DNA from: Octopus vulgaris
Taxonomy: Eukaryota
Direction: 5' to 3'
DNA: 64,000 nt
Assembly (NCBI GenBank): GCA_951406725.2
Contig: OX597822.1
Span: 79,298,001 to 79,362,000, forward strand
Position 1 is the first letter of the stretch. Every line of letters begins with the position of its first letter. The notes under the pieces are model-generated. The model made no database searches. It was not told where the DNA came from and was given only the letters and a program-made list of their open reading frames with translations. Shown here in pieces: positions 53,284 to 59,200 of the stretch. A program made the translations under genes and the position numbers.

Positions 53284-53960
53284 TTTATTTAAAAGCAGCA
53301 GAAATATAACAAAAGCTGTTACTCAGAGTTTCACGTTCCCGTTCATCAGACAGTTTTGTTAAAATGGAACAGAAATAACGATTGGTCCTTTCAAATAACG
53401 GTCTTAAGCATGCAATGAAAAAAATATACAAAACAAATGAATTCAATATAAATTCATCCTATTATAAAAATCGAGGAAAAACCTTAATTCGAAGAGCGGA
53501 TTCAAAATACAGATGGCCAATAATTATATATGAAATATAATTCGATTAATGCAATTATGCAATTAATTTTTTAAAACAGTATATACGCATACTAAGCCAT
53601 CAATATACATATATACATCAAAATACACAGATGGGTATACGCAGACTACATATATATGCAAACATATATATGTAAGACGTAAATATACACACATATACAC
53701 ATATACATATGTATATATATGTACGCAATCTTGCCCGCATGCAAAAATCACTTGGTGTATACATATAGACGAGAAGTAAAACGCAGAGAGGGGGAAAGAA
53801 AGACAAAAGGGAAGGCTCTTATATGTAACAGTTAGCGAAGGGAAGAGGCGCGCAAATTTAAAGGACTCTATACAAGTAACGGATAGGGGAAGAAAAAATA
53901 CATTTCCGTAACGGAGGAAAGCAAGATAGAAAGATACGAGGTTGAATATGCGTAACAAAC
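53284..53960 (-). mobile_element. Penelope-like 3' fragment in (TA)n
   Basis: Carries a hammerhead followed by AATAAA. Homologous over ~600 bp to 58318-58940. Confidence 0.7.
53308..53360 (-). ncRNA. Type I hammerhead ribozyme, intact core
   Basis: AACAAAACTGT-CTGATGA-ACG-GGAA-CGT-GAAA-CTCTGAG-TA-ACAGCTTTTGTT. GUA site; near-palindromic stem III. Confidence 0.85.
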
Positions 53961-54136
53961 GTATACAAAATAAAATTACGTATACATGTGTATATAAAAA
54001 TGTATATTAGCAATAAATACACATATAAGAACACACACACACACACACACACACACACACACACACACACACACACACACATACACACACACACACACAC
54101 ACACACATATATATATATATATATATATATATATAG

Positions 54137-54558
54137 CGTAAAGTAAACTAGCCATCTCAATATGGCTAACCACTAGGGTAGGGTGTTACTGTAGCTTTTT
54201 AGCCCCAGGAGATCATCGTCTCCAGCTGGCTTTAGACACAATTTCTGTGCCCTTATGATATTTGCAATGGGAGGTCATCCCCTCTCGTAAACCTAAGTGA
54301 TACACATGGACTGCAGTTTCGAGATTATTGTCTCTTGTCAACTCACGGTAATCACCGGTTTTCGATGAGGAGAGACCTGTTTGCGAATATCTATTTAATG
54401 TTTTTCCCAGTAGGGGATGACCTCCCTTTGCAAATATCACAAGAGCACAGAAATTGTGTCTAAAGCCAGCTGGAGACGATGATCTCCTGGGGCTAAAAAG
54501 CTACAGTAACACCCTACCCTAGTGGTTAGCCATATTGAGATGGCTAGTATACTTTACG
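54137..54558. mobile_element. Foldback MITE with 147-bp TIRs and 128-bp spacer
   Basis: Arms 54137-54283 / 54412-54558 are near-perfect reverse complements. No TSD found. Confidence 0.88.
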
Positions 54559-54632
54559 TTGTCGAGCGCTTACTGTTTACATCTCGTTCAAAGATTTATT
54601 ATTGCTATATATATATATATATATATATATAT

Positions 54633-54832
54633 TGTTAATCCAAACATGAAAGCACAAAAAAACACAACAACGCGAGGACGTGGAACAAATATAGTATTAT
54701 TGGACGCTCAGGAAAGAAGGAAAGAGGGTTTAACGTTTCGAGCGGAGCTCTTCGTCGGAAGCATAGGAGAAGGAAAGATCCAGAGAAGGGAAGACAGAGG
54801 GAAAAAAATCGCCAACGGTACACACGCGGTCT
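54633..54832 (-). mobile_element. Penelope-like terminus with a hammerhead variant (54727-54763)
   Basis: Minus strand CCGACGA-A-GAGC-TCC-GCTC-GAAA-CG-TT-AAAC. Abuts (TA)n. Confidence 0.65.
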
Positions 54833-54852
54833 ATATTGTCAGAATGATGTGG

Positions 54853-54900
54853 ACGCCTCTGATGAGAACCTAATAAGGTTCGAAAATCGATTAAGGTTGT
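54853..54900 (+). ncRNA. Minimal type I hammerhead ribozyme, intact core
   Basis: GCCT-CTGATGA-GAACCT-AATA-AGGTTC-GAAA-ATCGAT-TA-AGGT; palindromic stem III. Confidence 0.82.
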
Positions 54901-55152
54901 TCATCATTTTTTCAGTCTGCGAAGAAATGGCTAAAATTTGCCCTGTTTATAATTATACCATATGCTATATATATATTTCGTTTTTGTATTTGGTTTGCAA
55001 GATTCTTTATGTGAATTCGTGTGTTGAAGCATATAATTCTCCCCAGACACAATAACACACACACACACGCATACATACATACATACATACATACATACAT
55101 ACATACATACATATATATATATATATATATATATATATATATATATATACAT

Positions 55153-55292
55153 ATATTTATTTGTATATTACATATATTATAAAAACATGTAATATACAAA
55201 TAAATATCTGTAAATATAAAACCATCCGAATTTCTGAGTACCTCATTTCTCCTAATATAAAATACCTGTACATTATCTCCAAACCTTGTAAT
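55153..55292 (+). mobile_element. Short Penelope-like 3' stub with 21-bp inverted 5' piece
   Basis: ATATTTATTTGTATATTACAT / ATGTAATATACAAATAAATAT. TGAGTACCTCATTT resembles the ends of the 57555 and 58247 elements. Confidence 0.45.
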
Positions 55293-56439
55293 ATACATAC
55301 ACACACACACACACACACACACACACACACACACACACACACACACACACACACACACACCCATATATATATATATATATATATATATATATATATCCAT
55401 CAAAAGGAAAAGATCCTATATATATATATAAAGGTGGCTGGATGCAATTTATACATACATATATGCTTATTTTAAATGGCATCATTTTTCACTGTTTGTA
55501 TTTTGAAAGCTTATATTCCTAGTTTAGTTATCCTCTCTTATTAGTTTACGAATGCTATTTCTGATTTTTATATATTGAATGGAAATTTTTATGTACGTTA
55601 TGAAACCATTCCAGTTGTCAAAGAGTCCGCGCAGTCAGTTCTGAGAGTAATATGGAATAGCGTATGGTCTGTGATCAGATAGCAATTTCCTGAATTATTG
55701 CAACCTAAATGTAGTATGCAATGATAAAATCTTTTAGTTCTATAAAAATGTTTAATACTATTTATGTTGCATTAAAGAACTGAGAAAAAACATTTTATAT
55801 TTTACAAAATTTATTTTTGTGCATGAAGCAAATATTTAAAAATGTATTTTGTGCAGAACTGTGACGTTGAAAATGGAGATAACGATATTTTTTTTAGCGT
55901 TTATCATTGCTGTGGTTGTTCTCGTTACTATTATTATTTTTTTTCCGTAAAGTCATGTAAGATTTTGGAATATTTATAAATGGTGTTGCTTGGTTGTATT
56001 TGTGTGAAGATTTTGTAGACTTTGGAACACACTTTTCTTCGTAGGTATTTTAGAGACAGTTTCGTGCCGGTACGTATCTCCTGTCGCTCTCTGATGGCTT
56101 CGCACATGTTGGCATATTTCTGTGTGTCGAAAACACATCATTCGATTGACATTCAGGCCGAATTTATCCGGTATTTTTTAGTTGGTAGGGAAATTTTTGA
56201 GGCAAATTTGACAGCAGTTTCTTGTGGCTTAAACGGCTACATGGACTCTTCCTCTTGGGTTCGTTTCGGTGTTACTGTTTTGGGGGACTGATATTGTTAA
56301 TGGTAACAGCAGCGGTAGAAATAGTGGTGGCGTTCAGGAAATGCAGTAAAATGATCAAGAAAAATGACAAAGAAACAAAGTTACAATCAACAAATAGATT
56401 TATCACGGTTCATTTTGATCCGTAGCTACAAAATAATTT

Positions 56440-57277: not shown

Positions 57278-57640
57278 AATAATTTTAAATTGAATTCATT
57301 TTCGATTAAATTTAAATTTAATTGTAATTTGAATTAAATTATAGCCATGAAACGTACATAGTTTTTTTGTTGCTTATTATCTATTGATTATTCATTTTTA
57401 TTCTTTTTCTGATCTAGTTATATGTTTTATAAAAATATATTTTATTTTTTATTTATGCTTTGGTTTATGTCTATCATTGTTTGAATAGCATAATTATGGT
57501 TTATTCTCTAATTTATATCTGGTATATATATATATATATATATATATATACATGTAGGTCCCGGGTTGATTCGGGGTTAACCACAGTAAATAAGGTACTC
57601 AATACATAGCAGAGTAAAATTAATTTATTATATAGAAGGA

Positions 57641-57689
57641 GCTTCTACAGGACTAGAACTGTTTCATTCAAGAGAAATCATCAGGAAGC
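57641..57689 (-). ncRNA. Type I hammerhead ribozyme (mirror copy)
   Basis: Exact reverse complement of 57693-57741. Confidence 0.75.
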
Positions 57690-57692
57690 ACT

Positions 57693-57741
57693 GCTTCCTG
57701 ATGATTTCTCTTGAATGAAACAGTTCTAGTCCTGTAGAAGC
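57693..57741 (+). ncRNA. Type I hammerhead ribozyme, intact core
   Basis: GCTTC-CTGATGA-T-TTC-TCTT-GAA-T-GAAA-CAG-TTCTAGTC-CTG-TA-GAAGC. GUA site; weak stem II closed by U-U. Confidence 0.75.
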
Positions 57742-57801
57742 TCCTTCTATATAATAAATAAATAAAATATATATATATATATATATATATACATATATAT
57801 A

Positions 57802-58219
57802 GGATCTTTTCGGTTTGAACGGCAGTTTTTTCTAGCGGTGTCATATGAAATTGTCACCCATAATTATGACCCTAGTATCGATCTATTGCATTTCAATCTG
57901 TTTTAGGGTTAGGGTTAGGGTTAGAGGTGGGGTGAAGTGTATCTTTTTTTCTTCACAAATGTAAATAAACCCAATCTGTTTCTTAAACGAGGGACATATT
58001 CATATGGCACAGAAAGCTTTTTACCTCAATAGACGTATTTGATTGGTTGAAATTGCAGAAATTGAAGAAAAAACAAATATCTTACAAACTATAGAAGTTT
58101 CTTAATAAAGCCAAGAAAAAAAGATGTTTTATAAACACATTCTACCAGTATATGAAGTTAAAAATTTTTTAGTTACCTAGAATTTATGTTAAAAACTGCC
58201 GTTCAAACCGAAAAGATCC
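57802..58219. mobile_element. Monomeric Merlin/MULE-like MITE with TTAGGG repeats
   Basis: 29-bp TIR GGATCTTTTCGGTTTGAACGGCAGTTTTT at both ends. Inserted in (TA)n, compatible with a 9-bp ATATATATA TSD. Confidence 0.92.
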
Positions 58220-58246
58220 ATATATATATATATATATATATATATA

Positions 58247-58940
58247 CCGGAGTAAACACATAAATGTGAAACAAGGTGGAAAAAAGAGTACTCAAATACC
58301 AGGGGTAGAGTAATATGCTTTATTTAAAAGCAGCAGAAAATCAACAAAACCTGTTACTTGGAGTTTCAAGTTCCCATTCGTCAGACAGTTTTGTTAAAAT
58401 AGAACCGATATGACAATTCTATCAAGACTAGAATAAACGTTACACCTTTAAAAATGGATTTGTTTGATTGGTACTTTCAAATAACGGTCATGTGCGAGCG
58501 ATAAACAAAAATAAACAAAACAAATGAGTTCAATATAAAATATAAAATTATAAAAATCGAAGAAAAACCTTAAATCGAAGCTTTAGTTCAAATACATATT
58601 GTCATTAATAATGTAGAAAATATAATAATACATAAAAATTGAAATTAAAATATTAAAATATATTAAAATATTTCACAACAGTACATATTAATACTAAACT
58701 ATTAATATACATATATACATCAACATACACAGATAGATGTGTGCAGATGCATGTACACATATGTATACGCAATCTTGCTCGCATGCAAAAATCACTTGTA
58801 TCCATATAGACTATTAGCAAAATTCATGGAGGGGGGGGAAGGAACGCTCTTGTAAGCAACAGAAAGCTAAAGATGTAAGTAAAGGAGGGGGAGTAAAGTT
58901 ACAGGGCTCTATACAAGTAACGAATAGGGAGAGAAAAAAC
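58247..58940 (-). mobile_element. Penelope-like 3' fragment with a decayed hammerhead (58343-58395)
   Basis: AACAAAACTGT-CTGACGA-ATGGGAACTT-GAAA-CTCCAAG-TA-ACAGG. Homologue of 53284-53960. Confidence 0.7.
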
Positions 58941-58942
58941 GA

Positions 58943-59200
58943 AATTTACATTATTTACATTTGACAGATGTCCACATCTTGTTTGTCGATAGCACAACAT
59001 TTTGGCTGATATACTCTCCAGCCTTCATCAGGTGTCTTAGGGAAATTTCGAACTTGGGTTCTTATTCCTAAGGTATTTTTCGATGTTATTATCATCATCA
59101 TTATTATTATTATTATTATTATTATTATTATTATTATTCAGGTCACTACCTGGAATCAAATGTAAATAATGTAAATAATCTACATAGTTCCTCATCTCTT
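58943..59200. mobile_element. Penelope-like fragment with inverted ends and a decayed hammerhead (58991-59036, minus)
   Basis: ATTTACATTATTTACATTTGA / TCAAATGTAAATAATGTAAAT. CAC-CTGATGA-A-GGCTG..CAGCC-AAAATG-TT-GTG, where GAAACG appears lost by CpG decay. Confidence 0.6.

Follow-up and report, generated by a model that had tools for sequence, protein, structure and literature searches.

Hammerhead ribozymes at the ends of Penelope-like elements (PLEs) were published in 2014 and the targeting of (TA)n by the Hydra clade of these elements in 2021. Cervera and De la Pena 2014 (PMC4209133) described thousands of mostly lone hammerheads per genome, already noted opposite-strand pairs 100-700 bp apart, and found the monomer uncleaved and dimers cleaved at a low level. 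Craig et al. 2021 (PMC8557442) list 27 Hydra-clade families, 25 of them marked (TA)n and one from Octopus bimaculoides, and give RWK, DKT and CxCX5C as marks of the Hydra open reading frame (ORF). Head-to-head inversion and an optional tail belong to the described PLE anatomy (Arkhipova et al. 2013, PMC3846280), and in the anole PLE reverse transcription has two starts, with the tail located between them (Frangieh et al. 2024, PMC11167929). In the genome of Octopus vulgaris PLEs are known and partly active, with 31 recently active families (PMC13282606). Here we analysed 64,000 nucleotides of this genome (assembly GCA_951406725.2, contig OX597822.1, positions 79,298,001 to 79,362,000; the window), in which the region 53284-59200 carries seven hammerhead motifs.

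In this region six ends (pseudo-long terminal repeats, pseudo-LTRs) of endonuclease-positive PLEs, all dead or nearly so, have very probably piled up, with families A and D in or near the Hydra clade, families B and E of the type described by Cervera and De la Pena, and family C as a further one. The locus is thus of a known kind; the octopod families present here were not found in print by our literature searches.

Hammerhead motifs of the region

By scanning 53284-59200 with a scored hammerhead descriptor, which tolerates mismatches in core or stems and allows bases next to stem II to be unpaired, we recovered all seven layouts of the initial annotation at their claimed positions and strands (an earlier version found six of the seven), whereas a strict descriptor recovered only 53349(-) and 54859(+). 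Six motifs scored at least 6 and five at least 10, compared with means of 0.12 (maximum 1) and 0 (maximum 0) in 60 local dinucleotide shuffles. The type I core tested was C3-U4-G5-A6-N7-G8-A9, G12-A13-A14, A15.1-U16.1 and H17. Every core letter is kept in five of the seven motifs (A1, A2, C, D- and D+), and lesions are found in B1 (U4C) and E (G12A). With stem I open, three stems surround the core in A1, C, D- and D+, and at least one stem is broken in A2, B1 and E. The earlier count of four motifs with all core nucleotides therefore has to be raised to five, four being the number with both core and stems whole. The estimate of at least five families agrees with the five that we confirmed, A1 and A2 being paralogues; the seven motifs are real, but they correspond to six insertions, since a single one supplies both D- and D+ as its mirror arms (Table 1).

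Chance matches in AT-rich repeat DNA are an exceedingly improbable source of this set. In their favour, the Rfam hammerhead models were absent among the matches listed for two sub-regions (0/28 and 0/38, E up to 10), which were microsatellite- and hairpin-driven only; monomer fold z-scores were unremarkable save that of C; and B1, with a score of 5.0, is within reach of the shuffles. Short dimer-type hammerhead variants fall outside the Rfam hammerhead models. Chance is contradicted by the shuffle comparison at a score of 10, by the paralogues, by conservation within the families and by matches in other species.

Five weak extra motifs (13641, 16734, 46136, 49984 and 54341) were rejected as chance, since 2.8 motifs scoring at least 5 are obtained when the remaining sequence of the window is shuffled. 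A possible sixth minimal hammerhead family lies at 41049-41087(-), with G12A, a score of 7.5 and a distance of 1.8 kb from any TA run; it may be chance, as motifs scoring this high arise at a rate of 0.7 per shuffle of the remaining sequence.

Table 1. Features of the hammerhead-bearing insertions, in positions of the window; C3 and H17 (cleavage site) are given for each motif, with the position under which it was first listed.
Feature	Positions	Strand	C3	H17	Description	Basis
A1	53289..53898	-			5'-truncated 3' end, no tail, ends in (TA)n; A2 homology reaches 53898	
A1 hammerhead, 53308(-)	53316-53353	-	53349	53320	core and stems intact, cut after 53320	descriptor
B1	54633..54831	-			~200-bp member of very abundant family	descriptor, contig depth
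B1 hammerhead, 54727(-)	54728-54762	-	54758	54732	minimal PLE-type; U4C at 54757, private stem I mismatch at 54761	descriptor
C	54832..54972	+			141-bp insertion in short TA-like target	multi-copy contigs
C hammerhead, 54853(+)	54855-54897	+	54859	54893	core intact, palindromic stem III, long stem I, cut after 54893	descriptor
D	57551..57759	both			head-to-head palindromic mini-insertion between TA runs	perfect-palindrome analysis
D arms	57623-57759	both			perfect 68-bp arms, 137-bp palindrome centred 57691	sequence
D tail	57551-57622	-			on minus arm only	anatomy
D tail hairpin	57595..57615	-			bulged hairpin	fold z -2.13
D- hammerhead, 57641(-)	57641-57689	-	57684	57646		descriptor
D+ hammerhead, 57693(+)	57693-57741	+	57698	57736		descriptor
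A2	58247..58939	-			older paralogue of A1, ends in (TA)n	alignment
A2 tail	58247-58323	-				alignment, anatomy
A2 tail hairpin	58288..58311	-			bulged hairpin	fold z -1.65
A2 hammerhead, 58343(-)	58351-58388	-	58384	58355	core intact, one mismatch each in stems II and III	descriptor
E	58944..59155	-			minimal PLE-type hammerhead element, 3' end joined to A2	descriptor, alignment
E hammerhead, 58991(-)	58993-59034	-	59031	58996	G12A at 59003, decayed stem III	descriptor
E inverted copy	59156..59200	+			copy of E 3' end: 21 identical bases and 24-base extension, ends in (TA)n	alignment
B2	38429-38570	-			second B copy, listed at 38559(-), adjoining (TA)n; C3 changed, stem I whole	

Families A and D and the Hydra clade

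Family A has two copies within the window, A1 and A2, whose alignment spans ~600 bases. The 3' end of A1 lies 27 bases past stem I, in (TA)n, and A2 continues with a further 77-base tail. In A1, stem I, the core, stem III and the cleavage base are identical to those of Hydra-2_aMil, and stem II differs but pairs; its stem III and cleavage site also equal those of Hydra-2_aJap. An A-type ribozyme pattern scan of metagenome contigs gave at least 120 animal-like loci with at least 138 matches, and the pattern was absent from the viral contigs scanned. Two near-identical variants make up 119 of the 138 listed matches, so these represent few families. At least two Hydra ORF motifs were found upstream in six of the 138. 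In one locus (L001) a frame of 174 aa stops 108 nt ahead of the A-type ribozyme; 322 longer proteins match this frame at E up to 1e-15, and a protein of 716 aa that is 87% identical to it (P0125) contains RWK, DKT, YRDD and CxCX5C, as read by eye. The proposal that the motifs belong to PLE termini with minimal, dimer-capable type I hammerheads is thereby supported, family A being linked to the Hydra ORF through its relatives in other animals.

The 3' ends of two large groups of the fetched copies are bimodal: 72 of the 102 copies with sufficient sequence stop 22-35 bases past stem I, 26 reach the full 95 bases compared and four end elsewhere. In the window, cut sites lie ~25-110 bases from the element 3' ends. 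Head-to-head pairs were listed for 18 of the 120 fetched loci, 11 of them complete, and these 11 carry the tail on one arm (ten pairs) or on neither (one pair), never on both; this is the same layout as in D. Inverted 5'-truncated copies with a tail on a single end are seen in D and E, A1 is without a tail and A2 has one, and (TA)n borders A1, A2 and, on either side, D. Three of the 120 fetched loci (L025, L030 and L069) have an unrelated minimal hammerhead in the flank, so mixed families are not peculiar to the window.

In D, stem II is flanked by U on both sides, as in most Hydra-clade rows published; the reading of this U/U as damage at the base of stem II was dropped, as it is the norm in those rows. 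Stem III of D (ACAG/CUGU) is that of Penelope-1_NV, Penelope-1_SK and Hydra-1_aMil, and its loop is longer and self-complementary.

The tails of A2 and D have a bulged hairpin in common, the fold z-score of each being weak singly. By eye, the same shape was recognised at the 3' end of three of the six new Hydra consensus sequences in the supplement of Craig et al. 2021, namely Hydra-2_Amil, Hydra-2_Ajap and Hydra-1_Crog (one mismatch), with a G-C closing pair where the window has A-U and with different inner stems; the other three consensus sequences end within ~35 bases of the ribozyme. The hairpin motif was matched 45 times (42 intact, three broken) in 278,581 fetched bases, each time immediately 3' of an A-type ribozyme, and the hairpin starts 35-47 bases past stem I, immediately beyond the short 3' end. 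In an alignment of ten sequences, comprising the two of the window and eight of 12 distinct variants (four with an extra bulge or stem change were omitted), 95.7% of the cells pair and three cells are altered on both sides, which none of 500 shuffles reached; RNAalifold predicted the outer four pairs only. The set was chosen with the motif itself and its rows are related, so that it is suggestive of a tail hairpin conserved, with a compensatory pair, in relatives from other animals. No description of the hairpin was found in the literature, although subscription papers or supplements may hold one.

Families B, C and E

Contigs of four runs (X1, X4, X8 and X13, with three organism labels) were placed on 54633-55069 at 80% likeness. 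The summed depth in X1 was 1.9-6.3 million for B, 47,000-165,000 for C and 700-1,800 for the flank 55038-55069, with single contigs at 22-68; for B it was steady over 54663-54827, at more than 1000 times the low-copy flank. These depths suggest a copy number of ~10^4-10^5 for B and of ~10^3 for C, the summed depth itself not being a copy number. Directly after C, 54973-55035 is a fragment of another very abundant repeat with a summed depth of up to 2-4 million (X1, X4), and the 5' end of B2 is joined to another repeat.

Stem I of B is restored in 99% of the family depth in all four runs. U4 is present in only 22-32% of the B depth and most of the family (~70%) has C4, a share that may be inflated by placing contigs on a C4 reference copy. 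U4C lowers hammerhead activity in vitro (PMC3088659), and the C4 majority bears on whether PLE hammerheads must cut at all. At the other core positions of B and C no variant reached 10% in the four runs; the core is thus conserved among the copies of both multi-copy families save for U4 of B. The exact B motif was absent from the metagenome contigs scanned, and neither a tail nor an inverted truncated copy was seen for B1 or C.

Among the pieces listed within 54633-55069, those of C mostly run from 54833-54842 to 54951-54977. Three of the five variable positions of the C ribozyme preserve pairing; a fourth, in ~95% of the family, leaves stem II with 5 pairs, and the fifth, at a CpG, breaks the palindrome. 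A joint from 54831 to 54973 that omits C was found in a single contig of X4 and a single contig of X8, its short side having only 20 bases, and a similar C-skipping joint with 48 bases on the short side was found in X4. These joints hint that C inserted recently, its target being a short TA-like site at the B1 end, with a probable empty site in X4 and X8.

The possibility that some families, B above all, are non-autonomous solo pseudo-LTRs that spread in the manner of short interspersed elements (SINEs) on PLE enzymes is nearly an even one, and it is compatible with a pile-up of PLE ends. It is consistent with the depth plateau of B and with the loose ends behind 54831, where B sequences keep ~11 shared bases and then become AT-rich sequence of low agreement (X8, X13); the usual span of the C pieces points the same way, and non-autonomous PLE derivatives have been described (bioRxiv 10.64898/2026.07.22.740005). 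However, a constant 5' end would equally result from an RNA start at that point or from stalling of the copying process at the ribozyme, alternatives that contigs cannot separate, and the span of C is read from the listed pieces, bounded by 54633-55069.

Upstream of the E hammerhead lies an (AAT)n stretch, and beyond it 59139-59155(-) resembles the end of a tRNA B-box. E, truncated here, may have a tRNA-derived head, which would make it a SINE-like PLE passenger; a tRNA gene search found none. An ATG within the E ribozyme core opens a short frame through the 3' end (58951-59024(-)), like the ORF start of the anole PLE.

Five head-to-tail joints in single contigs, reaching 55-92 bases back across the C ribozyme, indicate partial C tandems at other loci. 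Together with the type I hammerheads and their palindromic stem III, they would fit non-LTR retrozymes, whose tandem units are transcribed, self-cut and circularised. Retrozymes are head-to-tail tandem repeats of ~150-450 bp (Cervera and de la Pena 2020, PMC7229834), whereas none of the 105 rows of our tandem repeat scan was a ribozyme-bearing array and all copies here are single or head-to-head, with PLE tails. We therefore consider retrozymes an improbable source, and the label retrozyme-like given to these elements was replaced by truncated and inverted PLE ends with an optional tail.

Several results weigh against assigning the insertions to PLEs, and A and D to the Hydra clade. No PLE ORF was detected in the region, where none of 100 stop-to-stop frames of at least 35 aa matched Pfam (low-complexity frames excluded), in agreement with the initial annotation, which saw no reverse transcriptase (RT) or GIY-YIG ORF; the ORF link of family A runs via other animals, none was found for B, C, D or E, and no full-length parent of these exact families came to light. 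Pfam and PDB sequence searches failed to recognise the Hydra proteins. The likeness of the window to the fetched loci is limited to ~44 bases round the A1 ribozyme, and blastn of the window elements against these loci gave seven matches for A1 and none for A2, B1, C, D and E. There was no D-type ribozyme among the loci fetched with the A pattern, the clade of D being assigned by likeness to published rows and by its tail. Within B and C, the four runs showed no compensatory double change.

Clustering, folding and comparison with known elements

The cleavage site lies no more than 120 nt from a (TA)4+ run in six of the seven motifs, compared with 41% of the non-TA positions of the region and 23% of those of the window; the association with (TA)n is supported. 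Of the eight insertions of the window, B2 and the uncertain motif at 41082 counted, six are packed into 5.7 kb, for which the scan p is 0.0006 under independence. Independence fails, with C at the B1 end and E at the A2 end, and for four of six clusters p is ~0.03. Given the great abundance of B and the partial nesting of the insertions, the hotspot of the initial annotation is weakly supported as a modest pile-up, and a self-feeding accumulation of TA-seeking elements would explain it.

Also between TA runs lie three unrelated inverted-repeat, non-coding elements (54137-54558, 56430-57286 and 57802-58219), the latter two of one family with internal (CCCTAA)n-like stretches and another piece at 13375-13547. 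Large palindromic elements without a hammerhead are found at 33468-33759 and 49175-49487, the first built of a common short window repeat. The sole RT of the window is a frame of the long interspersed element (LINE) type at 29014-30417(-), within 28946-30417, which an N gap interrupts. Its 3' end recurs 4.3 kb away, at 24363-24665, as an inverted copy of 303 bases, and both lie beside long TA-rich arrays; the best named relative of this RT is from Argonauta hians (62% identity). It was rejected as the source of the hammerhead elements, being LINE-type, 23 kb away and not linked to them.

For A1 the lowest-energy fold predicted is the double-hammerhead dimer (-14.1), which for C and D lies within 0.9 and 0.6 kcal/mol of the minimum. 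For the monomer, the predicted three-stem probability is 0.005 in A1, <0.0001 in C and 0.06 in isolated D. The whole D palindrome is predicted to fold at -108 kcal/mol, with the ribozyme fold ~79 kcal/mol above the ensemble; the D ribozymes would thus be trapped because their own 68-bp hairpin outcompetes the ribozyme fold. A1 and A2, the sole same-strand pair of one family outside D, are 5 kb apart and their pairing is 8 kcal/mol off the best fold. These predictions ignore tertiary contacts, and the ribozymes may have some activity. Dimer cleavage of PLE hammerheads was reportedly also described in a 2017 RNA Biology paper. The ribozymes are probably silent as lone genomic copies and would act as dimers in tandem element transcripts. 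Cleavage of passing transcripts appears unlikely from these folds, and the claim that the set could cut any crossing transcript was not upheld: two of the seven motifs have core lesions, one has broken stems, two are trapped and two have a monomer probability of at most 0.005.

Selection of the cluster as a regulatory device, one that would cut the host transcripts crossing it, would account for four motifs with core and stems and for six of eight insertions within 5.7 kb, but we regard it as very improbable. The insertions are non-independent (p 0.03), the folds disfavour monomer ribozymes and A1/A2 pairing, no host gene was identified in the region, and C is apparently absent at the site in two related organisms, which is a weak point. 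Moreover, the anole PLE inserts without a need for cleavage, and no RNA-seq reads ended at its cut site (PMC11167929).

For a pile-up of PLE ends, the following origin can be proposed. An element-coded RT/GIY-YIG protein made elsewhere would nick AT/TA-rich DNA, and copying would begin at one of two sites near the RNA 3' end, either just before or well after the tail hairpin. Copying would often halt just past the hammerhead and sometimes fold back, giving a mirror copy. The stumps left would be hammerhead-bearing, with their 3' ends outward into (TA)n and a tail confined to one side. TA would be left at the flanks of every insertion, so that new TA-seeking elements may land beside or inside old ones, and the ribozymes would act as dimers in tandem element transcripts. 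The tail hairpin is a concrete candidate for the choice of the copying start. We tentatively propose, with more doubt than confidence, that it is a cis signal for the Hydra-clade RT/GIY-YIG protein that sets the two RT starts, one just before and one 45-60 bases after, and that mobility needs the hairpin and not the ribozyme. If true, this would explain the bulk of hammerhead-sized stumps and the C4 majority in a spreading family B, and would provide a 25-base handle on PLE insertion and (TA)n targeting.

Compared with known systems, the window shares with retrozymes its non-coding nature, the type I hammerhead and the link to PLEs (PMC7229834; bioRxiv 10.64898/2026.07.22.740005), but retrozymes give circular RNA from tandem units, which the window does not have. 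The elements of Arkhipova et al. 2013 and Frangieh et al. 2024 resemble those of the window in their palindromes, one-arm tail, two 3' ends and (AAT)n; in those elements the tail is the ORF start, whereas the Hydra tail here is non-coding as far as seen and carries a bulged hairpin. B and E have the features of the minimal hammerheads of Cervera and De la Pena 2014, namely an extra base between A9 and 10.1, G10.1-C11.1, a short stem I and a palindromic two-base stem III; the accessible text of that paper makes no mention of a C4 majority, as in B, for PLEs.

The ribozyme of Hydra-1_Obim differs in sequence from those of A and D, so that the published octopus family is neither of these, and in the accessible supplement of Craig et al. 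2021 the ribozyme motifs of A, C, D and E and the 3' motif of A had no match. The tails here are ~70-80 bases long, compared with 30-40 published for the Hydra clade, and the window copies are non-coding ends only. In the other respects compared, A and D are like the Hydra clade. Shared features are the position of the type I hammerhead close to the 3' end, the patterns of stem III, the U/U that flanks stem II, insertion at (TA)n, copies truncated at the 5' end and inverted, and a tail that may be present or absent.

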